A stretch of DNA of 64,000 nt from a virus. The stretch lies in the IMG/VR virus record IMGVR_UViG_3300046333_000090, one strand, 5' to 3'. Both the position numbers and the translations under genes were made by a program. This document shows, piece by piece, positions 23,348 to 60,389 of the stretch (the stretch's first letter is position 1; each line of letters begins with the position of its first letter). The notes under the pieces are model-generated. The model was not told the DNA's origin, did not search any database, and saw only the letters and a program-made list of their open reading frames with translations.

Positions 23348-23772
23348 TCAGTGTATGTATGATGTGTTTAAGATATCTAACAATAGACAAAATTGATGGA
23401 ATGATAATTTCAACATATCATTTAAAATAAACCAACTATGTCTTTTTTTGGGGTCACTAATCCACTTCACTTCACTTGTTTTTTAGTCAATTCTAATTCT
23501 GTTTGATATTTTAATAAAAACTCACCAGATATAAATTCTGGCAAGTTTAATTCTGTATATGCCTTATCAGAGATATTATTATAATAATATCTCCATTTAA
23601 AATACAAAGAATTCATTCCATTGTCCTCATTCTTCTTAATAGAATACCCAGTAGTAATTCCTAGTATTCCCTCTGCACATAGGCAAGTTTGATCATTTTT
23701 ATCAACCAAACTACAAAACCCTTGTTTATATTTTGCGAAGTTGTCTTTCAGTTCTTGTAATTTGTTAATCAT
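23348..23772 (-). pseudogene. frameshifted member of the four-gene MINKL..LKENFAKY family
   Basis: A 5-nt duplication (AAGTG) near 23465 breaks the frame; removing it restores ...HSWFILNDMLKLSFHQFCLLLDILN. Confidence 0.75.
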
Positions 23773-23841
23773 GATAATTTACTCAAAAAAATTAGTTTAT
23801 GTGACTTGAGGGACACTCTAGAACTAGTAGGGGGAGCATAT

Positions 23842-24252
23842 TTATTGTTCATTCAATAAATCTAGCAGCAAAGAAAATTGGGAGAAGGTTAAGTTAATAT
23901 AATCATTAATATCATGCCAAAAAAATGAATCAAATTCTTTATTAATGCTAACAATTTGAAATTTTGTTAATTTTAATTGTTTTTGATGAGTTAATAATAA
24001 AGTTTTAGGAATGGGGTTGGGTAAATTTAATTGTTGATACACACTGCCAGGTATAGTACTATAATAGTATCCTCCATCCAATAGTATCATTTTTATATTA
24101 TTGTGCATAGGAACATTAGCAATTGTTCCCCCCACAGTAATTGCTAATACCCCTTCAGCACATAGAGAACACCCATCAAGAGACACCAATCTTCGGTGAT
24201 ATTGATTATATTTGGCGAAATTCTCTTTTAATTGTTCTAATTTATTAATCAT
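23842..24252 (-). CDS. hypothetical protein, tandem paralog family
   Basis: MINKLEQLKENFAKY...LCAEG...LTFSQF.LLLD.LN. Confidence 0.8.
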   Translation of the reverse strand: MINKLEQLKENFAKYNQYHRRLVSLDGCSLCAEGVLAITVGGTIANVPMHNNIKMILLDGGYYYSTIPGSVYQQLNLPNPIPKTLLLTHQKQLKLTKFQIVSINKEFDSFFWHDINDYINLTFSQFSLLLDLLNEQ

Positions 24253-24269
24253 GATATATATATATCTAT

Positions 24270-24677
24270 CTATAATTTGTTCAGGATGTCCAGCAGTAAA
24301 ATAAATTGTGGAAAGGTTAATCTGACAATATCGTTTAGATTTGCCCAAGAAATGAGAGAATTAAGACTTTGTAGCATATCTATTTGTCTCGAAGTTAGTT
24401 GTAATTTTTTTGCCCACCAAAGAAGTTCAATTTTTGTTATATATTTGGGTAAATTTAACTCTGTATAATGGTAGCTGGGTATAGAAAACTCAAAATAGCA
24501 ACTATTTTCTTCTTCGTAAACCATATCGTCAGAAAATGAATATTGTTTTTTGATAATTAAACCATTAGATATAGCCAAAATAGCCTCTGCACACAGGCAT
24601 TCGCCAGTCACTAATTTACAAAATCCTTGTTCATATTTGGCAAAATTCTCTTTTAATTGTTCTAATTTATTAATCAT
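24270..24677 (-). CDS. hypothetical protein, tandem paralog family
   Basis: Same conserved termini and CAE motif. Confidence 0.8.
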   Translation of the reverse strand: MINKLEQLKENFAKYEQGFCKLVTGECLCAEAILAISNGLIIKKQYSFSDDMVYEEENSCYFEFSIPSYHYTELNLPKYITKIELLWWAKKLQLTSRQIDMLQSLNSLISWANLNDIVRLTFPQFILLLDILNKL

Positions 24678-25101
24678 GATATATATATAGTTTGTCCAGA
24701 ATGTCCAGCAGTAAAATAAATTGGGAAAAAGTTAATCTGACCCCATCGTTCAAAGATGCCCAACAAATTTGTTCGCCTTCCTGCATAATAGCCTTAATTT
24801 GCTTTTTTGTCAACTTTAATTGTTCCCCCCATCCTATTAATTTTGATGTAGATATAAGCAACGGCAAATCTAAATTATCATAGATATTATGAGGAATATT
24901 CAAATATAGATATACCCCATTAATACAAAACATGGAGACGTTATGTTCTGGATGAATTTTGATGTCAAGACCAGCAGTAAGTCCTAAAATTCCTTCTGCA
25001 CAAAACTCGTATCCATCTTCATCTGTATTTCTCATCAACCTGCCGTATGTTTGTTCAAATGTGGCGAAGTTTTCTTTTAATTTGGTTATTTTTTCAATCA
25101 T
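24670..25101 (-). CDS. hypothetical protein, tandem paralog family
   Basis: Same conserved termini and CAEG motif. Confidence 0.8.
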   Translation of the reverse strand: MIEKITKLKENFATFEQTYGRLMRNTDEDGYEFCAEGILGLTAGLDIKIHPEHNVSMFCINGVYLYLNIPHNIYDNLDLPLLISTSKLIGWGEQLKLTKKQIKAIMQEGEQICWASLNDGVRLTFSQFILLLDILDKLYIYHD

Positions 25102-25741: not shown

Positions 25742-25844
25742 AACAGTTAATTTATAAGATAATATAATTATTATAACACAAATCCCCAGAGTTATCCAGG
25801 GATTTGTGTTATGTGTTATTCAGTTTTACATGATGAGGCTTATA

Positions 25845-26266
25845 CTATATGGAGTTGAAATATTCTGCAATAGTTATAATTTTTACTTCATCGGTAATTC
25901 GGTTTTTGATGGTGATTGCGGTGTCACCTGTAACACATTTCCCGCTTTGACGAGGTTGTCCCCAATATTAGCTAACCAGTTTATTGATTATGCGGCAATC
26001 GGGGACAAAAAAGGATACTTAACGACAACGAAGCGGTTGCGGTCAAACGTCTTCAGCAATTTTTCCTGATATTTATAAAGTTTTATATTTGTCAACCCTT
26101 TATCCAATGTAACGATTTTGATGTAATTATTTGCAAAATAATTTATATCTTTTTTGCACTTCATAAATTCGTTTACATTATCCTCATCAAATTCTATGTC
26201 TACACCAATTCTTTTTAGGAGCGGATTCGATTGAAAAGAGTTTTCCAGTTCTTTTTTTCTTGCCAT
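25845..26266 (-). CDS. terL: large terminase gp17 piece 1 (residues 1-90, ending at Walker A RQSGK) plus a 30-aa split-intein N-fragment; interrupted by a 59-nt coding gap
   Basis: MARKK...NPLLKR...KCKKDINYFANNYIKIVTLDKGL...YQEKLL...NRFVVVKYP, then 59 nt later CCT CGT CAA AGC GGG AAA TGT GTT ACA GGT GAC ACC = P-RQSGK|CVTGDTAITIKNRITDEVKIITIAEYFNSI*; TATAAATA at 26309-26302. Confidence 0.9.
25953..26011 (-). other. 59-nt hairpin coding gap between matched CCT codons in terL
   Basis: TTTTTGTCCCCGATTGCCGCATAATCAATAAACTGGTTAGCTAATATTGGGGACAACCT; arms TTGTCCCCGAT/ATTGGGGACAA; stop codons in all three frames. Confidence 0.85.
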
Positions 26267-51123: not shown

Positions 51124-53535
51124 TCATTCTTTGTCAAGTACTATTTCTGAATCAATATCTATGCACTCTTGCTTCTGCTCTAATATGTTCTGTTCTTTTA
51201 ATAAATTGTATAATTCTCCTAATTGTATGTCTCTCTCAACCCCCTCTAGATCGATGATACGAACAATACTACAAGATGAAAGCGACTCAAACTCCTGCTC
51301 GAATTGTTTAGCACTCGTATTCGCGATGGTCATTCGTTTAAATTCCGCATCTCTTCCTGGAATCATATCCCATGTAATCTCTACTGGCACATACTCATTC
51401 TTACCATTCTTTGCATCAACAAAAATACGATAAAATAAGTTTAGCCCACGGGGGGTTTGTTCACCAACAAATCCATTATAGATAACGGAATGACACCAAG
51501 GATCGTTAGGAACATTATCTAGAGAAAAATCATATAACTGTTCGATGTGGTCGTCATTAATCCGACGAATTTTAGTCCACAACAAATCCGGTCTAACATT
51601 CAATTCAACAAATTCGCTAACACTACTATTAATTACAGATTGAATGATTGGTAATTTTTTAAGAGCATTTTGTCGATTCATGTGTACATATTTGTGTTGT
51701 CCCTCCCCATTAAAAGCAAAATATTGTTTAATATATTTCTTTTGTGTTTCTAATGGGAGATGTTGTTTAATGAATGGAATAAAAAATGGAATAGAATCAC
51801 TCTGTTTACGAAATTTTCTGATATTAGTCTGATAGCAATTCCATTGTTGTTTGTGAGGATGTTTAAAATTAATTATTTCAAAAAATTCTGGGGTGTAGCA
51901 ATTTGGTATCTTCAGCAAAGTGCGACGAGAGTATCTCATTTTTCTTCTCATATGCCAATAATATCTTCGTTGTTCATATAACCCCTTTTTGATAGAATTA
52001 ACCACACCAATATTCAATAATAATAGGTGTATTTGTTCCAATAGGTCTTCATTAGTATTAGTGATGTATATATCACCATAATTGTTATTTTTTTTACGAT
52101 GATTCACTAGTGCCATACTATCGAAGCATCCTTGGAGAAAGGTAACAGTATTAATTTTAGACCACCGAAGGGGAATATCAGTTAGACCATTTCCAAAAGT
52201 AGTATACTTATCAGGAGAAGTGTACTTCAATTTTTTTAATACACTGGCTAGTTCAATTGAATCTATAATGTAATTAACCCCATCAAACTCATAATCCAGT
52301 CCAATATTTTTTATGGCATCATCATAACAATCCTCATCCAAATATCCACTATCCGTAATACGAAGAGTCAGAGTAATAAATCTGCCATCAGTTATATAAC
52401 CACTACCAGCATATATACCAAAAAAATAAGCAAATTCTGGAGTAACTATTGGGAATTTTTCAGAATCTAATGTATCCAAATTACCAAATATTTGAGTATT
52501 ATATCTGACTGCAATAAAATCATTAGGTTCCAACTCAGATGCCCTAAACCAACCATATTTGCCTTGCTTACAGGCATAAAGTTTATGAGTAGTCGAACAC
52601 TCCAATTCAGTAAAATTAGTATATATTTTTCTAACGTTTGATTTACCGTTATTACACATAACAGTACCTTTATTATTTCCCTTCATACCCACTAATTCAT
52701 ATGGTGGGATATGATATGATTTTTTCTCTAATTGATCTTTAATAAAAGTTTCGATGCGAGTATAACCTTTAGTGGTGAGAATATATGTATTTTTCACTAC
52801 ACAAGAAGTGATAATTAATTTAGATTCTTTAGATGACGAAATAGTAGGATATACCGAGGTCATAAACTCTTCTTGGATACCATTAGGGACGAATGCGAAT
52901 TCGTCGCAAAATACGATATTGAAGGTAGACCCGCGAACAGAGGTGGCACTGGTGGATGAGGCTAATATTTGAGAACCATTTTCAAGTTCGATATGTGTTT
53001 TATTCCATTGTATTACTCCTTGTTGTAACCACATTGGCAAATTTTCATATGCCATTTGTAGTCTACCTAATAGTTCCATAGATAGATCTCTTTTGTTTGC
53101 TAATATTGCAATATTTTGATGAGGTTTAAATAGTGCGACCCAGAGGGCATAGCAAATCATCGTAGTCGAGTTATGTGAAACTATATTATTGGTGATGTAG
53201 AGGTCATCTTCTACATTCAATAAATCATACATATTTTCAATATTATCTGATTCATTAATAGCAAGAATTATATCAGGATACAAATATCCACCATCATCCA
53301 TTACCAATATCTCGTCCCCAACTATTAAATCTACTAGTTTAGTTTCTTCATACTCATCTTTATCATTCAATCTAATTAGAATATGATCGTCAGCACAAGA
53401 TAGATGATATTGGGTGGTGTATACGTTCCAAACATTATATTTAATAGTTTGCCCTACTCCAGCAAAATCTTTATATCCAGTAGGCGTTAGTACTTGCCAA
53501 TCATTAGTATATTTTTCTTGTACAAACTCAGCCAT
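51124..53535 (-). CDS. terL: large terminase gp17 piece 2: IntC (122 aa), ATPase extein, cis intein (449 aa), extein, IntN (53 aa)
   Basis: ...NNIVSHN|STTMICY...AILANK...VFCDEFAFV (Walker B)...IITS|CVVKNT...GFVGEQ|TPRGLNLFY...FEQEFE|SLSSCSIVRI. Confidence 0.93.
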   Translation of the reverse strand: MAEFVQEKYTNDWQVLTPTGYKDFAGVGQTIKYNVWNVYTTQYHLSCADDHILIRLNDKDEYEETKLVDLIVGDEILVMDDGGYLYPDIILAINESDNIENMYDLLNVEDDLYITNNIVSHNSTTMICYALWVALFKPHQNIAILANKRDLSMELLGRLQMAYENLPMWLQQGVIQWNKTHIELENGSQILASSTSATSVRGSTFNIVFCDEFAFVPNGIQEEFMTSVYPTISSSKESKLIITSCVVKNTYILTTKGYTRIETFIKDQLEKKSYHIPPYELVGMKGNNKGTVMCNNGKSNVRKIYTNFTELECSTTHKLYACKQGKYGWFRASELEPNDFIAVRYNTQIFGNLDTLDSEKFPIVTPEFAYFFGIYAGSGYITDGRFITLTLRITDSGYLDEDCYDDAIKNIGLDYEFDGVNYIIDSIELASVLKKLKYTSPDKYTTFGNGLTDIPLRWSKINTVTFLQGCFDSMALVNHRKKNNNYGDIYITNTNEDLLEQIHLLLLNIGVVNSIKKGLYEQRRYYWHMRRKMRYSRRTLLKIPNCYTPEFFEIINFKHPHKQQWNCYQTNIRKFRKQSDSIPFFIPFIKQHLPLETQKKYIKQYFAFNGEGQHKYVHMNRQNALKKLPIIQSVINSSVSEFVELNVRPDLLWTKIRRINDDHIEQLYDFSLDNVPNDPWCHSVIYNGFVGEQTPRGLNLFYRIFVDAKNGKNEYVPVEITWDMIPGRDAEFKRMTIANTSAKQFEQEFESLSSCSIVRIIDLEGVERDIQLGELYNLLKEQNILEQKQECIDIDSEIVLDKE
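51457..52803 (-). other. cis intein with LAGLIDADG-type endonuclease, ending in Gln
   Basis: Starts CVVKNT, block B CSTTHKL, LAGLIDADG-like helices FAYFFGIYAGSG and FLQGCFDS, ends GEQ before Thr, splitting the coupling motif S|TP. Confidence 0.88.
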
Positions 53536-54810: not shown

Positions 54811-56034
54811 ATGTTAAAATTACTTCCGTCATTACAGCAAAATATAGGAAATTTGGTAGAAACACCAGATGGTTTCGAGAAATTTATGGGAGTGCAGAAA
54901 ATTTATAGAAATAAATATATAGAATTAGAATTCTTAGACGACAATAAATTAGTTTGCTCACTTAATCATCCGATAAACACCACAGAAGGTATAATATTAG
55001 CTAAAGATCTCACTAAAACTATAGAAATAATTGGAAAAGTAAATAATACTTTTCTTAAAACAAAAAAAACTATAAGAAAAAAAATAGAATTATATGATAT
55101 TGTTAATTCTGGCAAGAATCATTGGTATTATGCGAACGATATATTAAATAAAAACTGTAGCTTCATAGGTTCATCGCTCACCCTTCTTAATGCCAATAAA
55201 TTAGCAGCATTAACCCATAAAGAACCAATAGAAAGAAATGACAATATAGTTGTCTACGCAAAACCAAATCCTACGCATAGATATATGATTTGTGCAGACA
55301 CCGCAGAAGGTGTTGAAAAGGATTATTCAGTAGCAATGGTGTTTGACATCACTACTGTACCATACACCATAACAGCTATTTATAAAAACAATAATATTGC
55401 ACCAATAGTATTCCCCAACATAATATTGAAATTGGCGAATGAATATAATAAAGCTTACGTTCTTGTAGAGTTAAACAGCATTGGATCACAAGTAGGAGAT
55501 ATTCTACATTACGATCTAGAATATAGCAACCTACTTATGACAGCCACCGTGGGACGAAACGGGTTAATTCTAGGTCAAGGATTCGGTAATAAGTGCAAAT
55601 TTGGATTACAAATTACTAAAACTACAAAACGACTAGGTTATAGTAACATGAAATCTTTGATTGAAGATGATAAATTACTAATAGAAGATTTTGGTATTAT
55701 TAGTGAATTATCAACATATGTAGAAAAAGGGGATTCTTATGCAGCAGATGATGGTAGTAATGATGATCTAGTAGCTTGTATCGTATTATTTTCTTGGTGT
55801 GTTACCCAGCCGTATTTCAAAGAACTTACAGATTTAGACGTAGCAAAAGATATTCGGGAATTACACAGACAAGAAATAGAAGACGACATGGCGGTATTAG
55901 GTGCTTTATTGATAAATGGAGAAGAATTAGAAGATGGTATTGTGGAAGAAGGTGGAGATCTGTGGTGGAATGCTAAGTTAACTGACAGTTATTATGAGTA
56001 CGGGTACGAGGTGCCAGTTATTTATTACTTTTAA
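54811..56034 (+). CDS. terL: large terminase gp17 piece 3: IntC (115 aa) plus the C-terminal nuclease domain
   Basis: ETPDGFEKF.G...CSLNHP...LYDIVN...YYANDILNKN|CSFIGSSLTLL...ICADTAEG..KDYS...VELNSIG...NDDLV. Confidence 0.93.
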   Translation: MLKLLPSLQQNIGNLVETPDGFEKFMGVQKIYRNKYIELEFLDDNKLVCSLNHPINTTEGIILAKDLTKTIEIIGKVNNTFLKTKKTIRKKIELYDIVNSGKNHWYYANDILNKNCSFIGSSLTLLNANKLAALTHKEPIERNDNIVVYAKPNPTHRYMICADTAEGVEKDYSVAMVFDITTVPYTITAIYKNNNIAPIVFPNIILKLANEYNKAYVLVELNSIGSQVGDILHYDLEYSNLLMTATVGRNGLILGQGFGNKCKFGLQITKTTKRLGYSNMKSLIEDDKLLIEDFGIISELSTYVEKGDSYAADDGSNDDLVACIVLFSWCVTQPYFKELTDLDVAKDIRELHRQEIEDDMAVLGALLINGEELEDGIVEEGGDLWWNAKLTDSYYEYGYEVPVIYYF

Positions 56035-58968: not shown

Positions 58969-59172
58969 TTAGATATCAGGAAAATTTAAGTGTGCAAATT
59001 GTTTATGATGTATTTTCGCAGCATCATCATAAGCTTTAGCTGCTTCAATTTCAGTTTTAAACCTTCCTAATCGGTACTTGGTCTTATTTGCAATTATTGT
59101 TGCCATCCAGGTATTATTACGAGAATCTAAATAGTATCGAATAATATAGACATTTAAGTCTTTACTACTCAT
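58969..59172 (-). pseudogene. AP2-domain relic of an endonuclease gene disrupted by IS607
   Basis: WMATI......RLGRFKTEIEAAKAYDDAAK....FAHLNFP; an HTH N-terminal relic (MSNPNST...KDLGIS) lies on the other side at 61130-60972. Confidence 0.7.
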
Positions 59173-60389
59173 TTGTAAGTTTTTATCCTTACTGGGTGTA
59201 CTACTAAACCCTCTATCCCATTGCTGAACACGTTTGGGATTGCTTTTCTCATGATATTATAACTACCATTTATGTCTGCATTAAATTTCAGACCACTCTT
59301 GGCTTTGTATATCCCTCGTTGCAGTCTTCTACCGCTGAACTGGCGTTTTACACCTGCACTGTAAGTAGGAATTGAATCTGCATCTAAGAAACTTGCTTTA
59401 CTTGTATAACTCTCTTCTTGTTCGATAAATTTTATACCTACCAATTCACATTTGTAATGCAGTTTGGCTATCAAATCATTAAATGGTACTTGAACGAAGT
59501 TCTGGTTATTTTTACTCCCTATATTGATGTTTTGTTTCCATCCATTGTTTTTACCTACTACCAATGTGCCCACATCATTTTCTATCAATGTCCTTACAAT
59601 AGTTGTACTAGCTTTATGTAAATAATCACTAATTTTGTTTCCTCTCTTATTGTAAAGCCTTCTGATCCTCTTACTACTACCACCTTTCAAGATTGATTGT
59701 AGCTGCGCTAATCTCTTGTTGAAAAATTGGTTAATTGATTTTAGAGGATTCCCACTTAACAGCATTGGCTTAGTTCCAATTTTATTAAATGTAAGTGCAA
59801 CCAAATTACTCAGTCCTAAATCTATAGCTGCTACGTTTGCTTGGTCTAATCTCAAATCAACAATTGATTTTTCGTAAACTATTTCTACTACATAATGCTC
59901 CAATTTTGGCACAATTCTAACTTGATCGATTTTCTCATATGGGATATCTGTTTGAACAAATATATTGGTACCAGATGGATTAAGTAGTCCATCCTTGGTT
60001 AAGCTGCGCTTAGAAATAGCTTGATTAGAGTAAGAAGTTACATTTCTACCAGATTCAATTTTATGATATTTTGGAATTTTTGGACACGCATTAAATTTAG
60101 ATGGATTGCTTGTAAAAGATTTGATAGCCTGAAAGTAAGATTTCCAATTTTTATCAAGACCCATCAGGACATGTTGGGACACTTTCGCCGGAAGCGAAGT
60201 ATAATCAATAGTACCCTGAACAAGCTTTAATATCTTGTAATAATTAAGATAACCAGTACCAGCAAATATAGATTGTCTAATTATATAATTTGCATAGTTA
60301 TATAAATTCTTAGATAAGAAACAAATAGAATCTAACTCATAATAAAATGGATGATTAGAGTAGAACTTATGTTGTTGAGTTAGTTTCAT
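59169..60389 (-). CDS. tnpB: IS607-associated TnpB
   Basis: SKNLYNYANY..RQ; AAIDLG; VVGKNNGWKQ; QEESYTSKAS; NADINGSYNI. Confidence 0.93.
   Translation of the reverse strand: MKLTQQHKFYSNHPFYYELDSICFLSKNLYNYANYIIRQSIFAGTGYLNYYKILKLVQGTIDYTSLPAKVSQHVLMGLDKNWKSYFQAIKSFTSNPSKFNACPKIPKYHKIESGRNVTSYSNQAISKRSLTKDGLLNPSGTNIFVQTDIPYEKIDQVRIVPKLEHYVVEIVYEKSIVDLRLDQANVAAIDLGLSNLVALTFNKIGTKPMLLSGNPLKSINQFFNKRLAQLQSILKGGSSKRIRRLYNKRGNKISDYLHKASTTIVRTLIENDVGTLVVGKNNGWKQNINIGSKNNQNFVQVPFNDLIAKLHYKCELVGIKFIEQEESYTSKASFLDADSIPTYSAGVKRQFSGRRLQRGIYKAKSGLKFNADINGSYNIMRKAIPNVFSNGIEGLVVHPVRIKTYK

Follow-up and report, generated by a model that had tools for sequence, protein, structure and literature searches.

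The terL gene of this virus is interrupted at its Walker A coding site by a 59-nt coding gap that is real, old, conserved and structured, and that lies in an essential gene. With roughly even chances of being right, it is best explained as a programmed coding gap bypassed by translating ribosomes, in a manner that differs in its details from the bypass of T4 gene 60. The analysis covered the 64-kb stretch of DNA as a whole, hereafter the window, together with related sequences. The features of the window and the homologous gaps are collected in Table 1.

On the minus strand of the window, the first piece of terL opens with an ATG at 26266 and can be read up to AAG TAT CCT (26014-26012). This upstream part matches the TerL family phrog_5989 (E = 2.4e-16) and aligns with residues 1-79 of TerL from a relative. 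A second CCT (25955-25953), the same codon as the take-off CCT, is found 59 nt further on and is followed by CGT CAA AGC GGG AAA TGT and then by a 30-aa N-intein. The intervening sequence contains stop codons in all three frames. Beyond the take-off CCT, the 0-frame comprises seven more codons before the TAA at 25990-25988, and ribosomes that do not skip the gap would release a 92-aa product ending there. A search across the entire downstream ORF for ATG, GTG or TTG gave none. Our re-reading agrees on all these points with an earlier note on this DNA, namely the reading on the minus strand, the positions of both CCT codons, the stops in every frame and the startless downstream frame. Deleting exactly 59 nt recovers the K-x-P-R-Q-x-G-K spacing in the window, and this removal is the sole one that restores the motif because R-F-x3-K-x-P-R-Q-x-G-K-S-T-T is uninterrupted in the 80 IMG/VR relatives examined (80/80, 49-59% identical); the spacing that the note had called canonical is indeed that of the relatives.

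Table 1. Features of the terL locus in the window and homologous gaps in related lineages
Feature	Position	Strand	Description
terL piece 1, upstream coding part	26012..26266	-	85 codons beginning with ATG; the final conserved one, CCT (Pro) at 26014-26012, is the take-off position
Coding gap, 59 nt	25953..26011	-	U tail of 3 nt, hairpin of 53 nt, terminal CCT
Hairpin	25956..26008	-	Folding -23.1 kcal/mol (sense) vs -15.8 kcal/mol (antisense)
In-frame TAA	25988..25990	-	8th codon past take-off; base of the apical helix
terL piece 1, downstream coding part	25845..25952	-	RQSGK 25952-25938, Cys1 25937-25935, IntN, TAG 25847-25845
Zinc-finger/HNH-like ORF, 112 aa	25403..25741	-	phrog_3377 HNH, E = 2e-6
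terL piece 2	51124..53535	-	121-aa C-intein ending SHN, then STT; ATPase exteins
terL piece 3	54811..56034	+	Second long C-intein and nuclease domain (Terminase_6C)
Clade 1 gap, window			59 nt after Pro
Clade 1 gap, L097			62 nt after Pro
Clade 1 gap, L098			62 nt after Arg
Clade 1 gap, L083			63 nt after Gln
Clade 1 gap, L084			61 nt after Gln
Clade 2 gaps, L204, L205 and L206			59 nt each, after Pro; 43-52% identical to the window

Fracture of terL goes beyond this gap, the gene being split into three genes in the window, piece 1 being 25 kb away from pieces 2 and 3, which lie on opposite strands. Piece 2 consists, in this order, of an IntC, an extein, a full LAGLIDADG intein, an extein and a second short IntN; its IntC matches the engineered consensus intein 6dsl_B (E = 5e-8). 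Piece 3 shares 48% identity with the gp17 protein of T4-like cyanophages. Among cultured phages, T4-like cyanomyoviruses come nearest (~48% identity); a megablast search against cultured phages returned no match. As proposed before, a split-intein N fragment follows RQSGK. It is 30 aa long and of the atypical split-intein type, with a Cys1-bearing N part of ~30 aa after GK and a C part of ~121 aa ending in HN. Trans-splicing of piece 1 with piece 2 would, judging by these junctions, place STT directly after GK (GK/STT) and yield a full Walker A. A metagenomic terminase has been described whose intein is likewise split atypically, its C part being long (122 residues; Dassa et al. 2009, PMC2677866). 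As in the window (~30 + ~121 aa), that intein stands after the Walker A GK and is split past motif N1; however, that study concerns a split intein and not a coding gap, which here falls within the extein, five codons before the intein begins. In three distant IMG/VR sequences (L024, L030 and L034), a contiguous intein starting ALSLDTPIP is found directly after the Walker A GK (at ~3300 in L030 and L034), which is the insertion point of the window's split intein.

A gap at the same site of terL was found in eight diverged lineages, the window included, which fall into two clades and have gap lengths of 59-63 nt. The relatives were located as truncated N pieces of 92-94 aa in a large protein collection, and DNA was obtained for seven of them; one metagenome scan relied on poor peptide patterns and reached just relatives of <=47% identity. 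In the window and the seven homologues alike, the two halves flanking the gap sum to exactly PRQSGK, divided as P/RQS, PR/QS or PRQ/S. All eight gap boundaries fall between codons, the element being displaced by 0, 3 or 6 nt, and in 8/8 the 8th codon of the entering frame is UAA or UAG. In L098, UAA is replaced by UAG with a compensating change in the stem, and the stop is retained. Furthermore, the gap lengths (59, 61, 62 and 63 nt) span all three phase relations, the frame required downstream is blocked by stops in five of the eight gaps, and a UGA stands immediately ahead of the resume codon in L098.

Close relatives P0008 and P0011 (= L101) are gapless and have an uninterrupted motif. In the tree of the N pieces, which omits clade 2 (found afterwards) and includes one member, P0010, known as protein only, the clade 1 gapped forms and two gapless forms make up one clade (support 97/97). 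The gap positions are interleaved inside the clade 1 part of the tree, and so are gapped and gapless forms. Despite saturation of the synonymous sites between lineages (pS 0.6-1.0), the gaps are still 60-76% identical; pN is lower than pS for the IntN frame in all pairs, and the coding sequence flanking the gap is under purifying selection. Alignment of the tails of the window and L083 suggests an ancestor with PRQ on both sides of the insert, as after a 9-bp target duplication. On this comparison, the element probably goes back to the insertion of a small inverted repeat; the PRQ codons would have been duplicated in the process, and the lineages kept different halves of the duplication.

The gap folds into one hairpin. 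In the window, its basal stem of 11 bp (26008-25998 with 25966-25956) holds the C-run and the G-run (25963-25960) and is surmounted by a GC/GC middle helix of 2 bp, a bulged A, an apical helix of 6 bp and a loop of 6 nt, the architecture given in the earlier note. With a folding energy of -23.1 kcal/mol (z = -3.9), this hairpin was not equalled in stability by any of 200 shuffled sequences. The same three-helix hairpin is found in the fold of every homologue (-21 to -25 kcal/mol). The basal helix of the homologues is again a C-run paired with a G-run, the middle helix is wholly different in sequence from one lineage to the next yet paired in all, and the apical helix, whose sequence is almost invariant within clade 1, shows an A-U to G-C swap among homologues; compensatory changes were found in all three helices. 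A model-fitted alignment gives a covariation score of 0.295, compared with 0.196 in shuffles, of which 1/500 reached it; all slid controls score lower. The model-fitted alignment puts two sequences one column out of register, so that its value of 80% paired positions understates the pairing seen in single-sequence folds. A covariance model (R1) scores the window gap at 72.4 bits (E about 1e-18).

Across the gapped loci, folding energies are -21 to -25 kcal/mol for the sense strand vs -9 to -16 kcal/mol for the antisense strand. The sense strand folds better by 7-15 kcal/mol because of G-U pairs, and this asymmetry points to RNA, not double-stranded DNA, as the conserved form. The RNA structure of the gap is under selection. 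In the eight gaps, the hairpin starts 3-7 nt past the take-off codon and covers nearly the whole gap. The 5' tail ahead of the C-run is a constant 6-7 nt in the homologues. No sequence is conserved at the 3' boundary, which is located 3-8 nt from the end of the stem and 7-11 nt from the G-run. The G-run itself forms the 3' arm of the stem and ends 4-8 nt ahead of the landing triplet in 8/8. No match was obtained by searching the gap against Rfam at E values up to 10, and no conserved flanking helix emerged from wider folds; in these wider folds the KFP codons are complementary to the GK codons (UUUCC/GGAAA), which coding constraints probably explain. The comparison of relatives called for in the earlier note has thus yielded same-site inserts with covarying stems in eight lineages, and the claim that both flanks are intact and the gap skipped precisely is backed by the selection on the flanks, the three phase relations and the eight homologous gaps.

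Judged from the sequences, the two flanks have to be united precisely between two codons, since separate polypeptides would not need to sum exactly to PRQSGK in each lineage. We infer that the joining occurs on the ribosome and not in the RNA; the hairpin's role as roadblock or shunt and the parts assigned to the G-run and to the in-frame stop are likewise deduced. In the proposed mechanism, a ribosome carrying the 85-residue nascent N piece of TerL would arrive at the Pro codon CCU, placed 3 to 7 nt ahead of the stable GC-clamped hairpin. The peptidyl-tRNA would let go of the mRNA, the ribosome would cross the entire hairpin without decoding, and decoding would restart at CGU, 7 nt beyond the G-run, to give ...KYP-RQSGK-IntN. 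Trans-splicing of this product with piece 2 would then complete the Walker A motif, and ribosomes failing to bypass would decode seven further codons before terminating at the UAA of the hairpin top. With the take-off codon in the P site, a 5' tail of 6-7 nt would put the base of the stem near the mRNA entrance of the ribosome. The codon-exact boundaries, the whole-codon shifts and the preserved stop at the 8th codon favour, as far as these sequences go, bypass over splicing, since all three concern the reading frame, to which splicing would be indifferent.

Hopping between matched CCU codons, put forward in the earlier note, finds no support as a general rule, take-off and landing codons being matched or synonymous in 2/8 only: they are identical in the window alone (CCU/CCU) and synonymous in L083 alone (CAG/CAA). 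The remaining six landing triplets are UCA, UGA, CUU, ACA, AUU and ACA, and no matched codon pair is possible in L098. The landing triplet is compatible with the take-off codon at positions 2 and 3 in 6/8, which makes it the top offset; however, other landing offsets reach 4-5/8, and the excess at the landing triplet is small. The reading of GGGGA as SD-like is weakened: a G-run precedes the landing triplet by a few nucleotides in all eight gaps, but the genes of this phage rarely carry SD motifs (GGAG at 0/46 gene starts in the window). Other observations also speak against bypass. The codon next to take-off is UUU in five of the eight gaps and otherwise UUC, UGU or AAU, and there is no stop or rare codon at this place. 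If the hairpin stays shut, the G-run cannot pair with rRNA, as the hairpin nearly fills the gap. No feature was identified that fixes landing precisely where the codons mismatch, and an AUG or GUG near the resume point in three clade 2 sequences would permit another solution there.

[quoted passage not shown] The terL gap resembles the 50-nt gap of T4 gene 60 in several respects: an untranslated gap of ~50-60 nt interrupts an essential and conserved phage gene, and joining of the two parts gives the exact ancestral protein. As with gene 60 homologues, the position shifts by one codon and gapped and gapless forms are interleaved. Both systems also have a G-rich tract a few nucleotides before the landing triplet and an in-frame stop for ribosomes that do not bypass. 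A homing-endonuclease-like ORF beside the gap is a further likeness in the window, although this link is inconsistent in the other gapped loci. The differences are as marked. Gene 60 encodes a topoisomerase and the gap here lies in the Walker A region of terL, with no similarity between the cassettes, judged by description. The stop adjacent to take-off in gene 60 is here the 8th codon, with no rare codon, and the short take-off stem-loop and AU-rich sequence of gene 60 are replaced by a single three-helix hairpin spanning nearly the whole gap. Finally, the pair of codons read by the same tRNA in gene 60 has no counterpart in six of the eight terL gaps.

No publication describing the present gap was found in the literature. 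The bypass inserts of Magnusiomyces capitatus are short and GC-rich and occur in an AT-rich genome. Two-out-of-three codon matching is reported for yeast mitochondrial bypasses in PMC5009743, according to which the mitochondria of M. capitatus share with the terL case frame-breaking blocks in coding genes and codons that are not always perfectly matched. The mitochondrial system has 81 such positions in one genome, an unassigned A-site codon and mitochondrial ribosomes, whereas the terL gap is single-copy, site-specific and bacterial, with an ordinary Phe codon next to take-off. A candidate bypass of 10-nt UUA blocks concerns the large terminase of Streptomyces phage Hau3 (PMC10732093), and here too a frame-breaking insert is involved, its removal restores a conserved junction, and bypass is deduced chiefly by comparison. 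The Hau3 case nevertheless differs by its 10-nt inserts, its rare UUA trigger, the lack of a gap-spanning hairpin, and another host and site in the gene (PMC10732093).

A possible, though less likely, alternative to bypass by hopping is that the gap is skipped without codon-anticodon re-pairing, either by a prokaryotic ribosome shunt across the closed base of the hairpin or through a protein-dependent class of 60-nt hairpin mini-introns. In the shunt version, an elongating ribosome would resume at a position determined by the structure.

Excision from the RNA is the main rival of bypass, though an unlikely one. In such a protein-dependent mini-intron, a nuclease would recognise the hairpin and cut the single-stranded tails, and an RNA ligase would rejoin the exons. 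The structure conserved on the mRNA strand, with its covariation, agrees with this reading, and the near-invariant apical sequence of clade 1 would fit a protein binding site. Excision requires neither a codon match nor a frame relation, which suits the six unmatched pairs out of eight and the occurrence of all three phases; moreover, the same hotspot holds a group I intron-like insert in a clade 2 relative (L207). Yet the variable, unconserved 3' boundary, whose distances from the end of the stem and from the G-run both change among lineages, makes a poor fit to a structure-measuring nuclease. The codon-exact boundaries, the whole-codon shifts and the retained stop at codon 8 are left unexplained, and we know of no comparable mini-intron system in bacteria or phages. 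Self-splicing introns of group I or II were rejected, the gap of only 59-63 nt being much too short and without any match in Rfam.

Two coupled cistrons offer an improbable solution, in which the N piece would end at the loop UAA, RQSGK-IntN would start separately and the pieces would associate non-covalently; translation of the 5' arm would melt the stem and expose the G-run as a ribosome binding site. This would account for the seven codons that stay open across the C-run before a stop is met, for the pairing between C-run and G-run, for the 7-11 nt between the G-run and the first codon required, and for the freedom of frame. Split genes that are not rejoined are known beside mobile endonucleases (preprint 10.1101/2022.08.31.505936). 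Possible starts also exist in clade 2: L205 has a GUG and L206 an AUG two codons ahead of Arg (4 nt past the G-run and in frame with RQxGK), where L204 has GUA, and L207 has an AUG directly before GGC AAA UGC. The starts of L205 and L206 may be due to chance or represent a step to a truly split gene. Canonical in-frame starts near the resume point are found in 3/8 (L083, L205 and L206), which is about the estimated chance level. Re-initiation is rejected in the window, whose downstream ORF is without AUG, GUG or UUG, and no start exists in L097, L098, L084 and L204 within the interval bounded by the last upstream stop and the GK codons. Two separate chains would have no need to add up to PRQSGK in all lineages, the cut would part strand beta-1 from the P-loop, and the rarity of SD motifs in the phage is unfavourable as well.

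That the gap is a dead relic is very improbable. Piece 1 would then be inactive and either another terL copy, a minority gapless allele, a defective phage or an assembly error would have to be invoked. The window represents 64 kb of a genome of ~157 kb and assemblies reflect majority alleles only, which leaves some room for this reading. However, the 92-aa truncated product is encoded by 17 contigs from several independent samples that carry the same gapped sequence, and the three contigs compared with the window are identical to it across 422 nt, which rules out an assembly artefact. Eight lineages retain the gap, with both flanks intact and evolving under purifying selection even though synonymous sites are saturated; pieces 2 and 3 are themselves intact yet lack the N-terminal 85 residues and the Walker A GK, and each TerL segment is present once in the 64-kb window. 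A MITE in a defective gene, which would show dispersed copies with target-site duplications, is rejected as well: using the covariance model, further copies of the gap were sought in the 64-kb window, in the flanks of the relatives, in >100 loci and among pattern matches in IMG/VR and GTDB genomes, and none appeared beyond terL. Searches of IMG/VR and GTDB genomes for the exact hairpin patterns gave chance matches only, apart from the L097 contig. Among the gapped loci, a 3-nt direct repeat is seen in the window alone. Of the findings named beforehand as able to overturn the case (an artefact, a MITE or a second 5' part of terL), none was thus encountered, the last within the window.

A hairpin-stimulated -1 frameshift at the U-run (U UUU UUG), maybe combined with readthrough, which would insert ~20 residues before the P-loop, is hardly credible: the slippery-looking U-run adjoining the take-off codon in 5/8, a hairpin onset at a spacing typical of frameshift stimulators and the -1 frame open across the gap in L097, L205 and L206 are outweighed by the UAA at codon 15 of the -1 frame in the window, the +1 shift required in L084, the two UAG stops of the in-frame L083 gap, the UAA met immediately after a -1 shift in L204, the use of TAA, TAG and TGA alike as gene stops in the window, and the implausibility of an insert of ~20 residues in a P-loop of invariant spacing. 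Frameshift or readthrough as a common mechanism is rejected because the phases needed differ among the homologues, covering all three relations, and the needed frame is closed in 5/8. The view expressed in the earlier note that simple frameshift and re-initiation both fail is sustained in the window by the closed -1 frame and the startless downstream ORF.

T4 gene 60 is, to our knowledge, practically the only natural case of long-range programmed bypass that has been studied well. If the terL gap is bypassed, it would provide an independent family in another essential gene and with a different signal architecture. The eight natural variants amount to a mutational series in which stems covary, all three frame relations occur and some landing triplets are unmatched, and with them the rules that govern take-off and landing can be tested directly. 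Should the gap prove to be cut out of the RNA, it would represent a phage intron of a new kind; more broadly, a shunt or a hairpin mini-intron would constitute a new expression route for an interrupted gene of bacterial type. In practical terms, automated annotation truncates terL in these phages and turns it into 92-aa 'hypothetical proteins'.

The Walker A coding site is, on the insertions found here, a hotspot, in view of the inteins after GK and of the group I intron-like insert located one codon upstream of the hairpin site in L207, and it draws inteins, introns and hairpin gaps alike. The L207 insert (2454-2970) matches RF00028 with 37.6 bits (E = 8e-8), a value below the gathering score, and its 5' splice site would follow AAG UUU. 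A degenerate copy of the P-loop codons is seen ~30 nt beyond the RF00028 model match, and the downstream ORF opens with AUG GGC AAA UGC (M-G-K-C-IntN) directly after UAA CAA. A splice junction restoring P-R was sought in L207 and not found.

Downstream of the gap in the window, the 112-aa zinc-finger/HNH-like ORF, for which Pfam gives only a weak zf-C2H2 match, is possibly a remnant of a homing endonuclease. A truncated copy exists in L084 and the ORF is missing at the other gapped loci, where no consistent endonuclease neighbour was detected. After the IntN stop, a long terminator-like hairpin with CCC/GGGG is conserved between the window (25775-25835, minus strand) and L084 (5430-5490); in L084, it is followed by the truncated zinc-finger/HNH-like copy. 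The window further contains four tandem paralogous ORFs of 101-168 aa (23467-25101), starting with MINKLEQLKENFAKY or similar and without any family match; ORFs related to them are also found downstream of the gap locus in relatives. The window has a GC content of 32%, and no tRNA genes were found in it. A shared AT-rich motif (TATTAAATTTAATAAA) stands before many of its ATG start codons and ends a few nucleotides away from them. Lastly, a TnpB-like gene with OrfB_IS605 and Cas12f1-like TNB domains is present at 59169-60389, in the genome of a T4-like phage.
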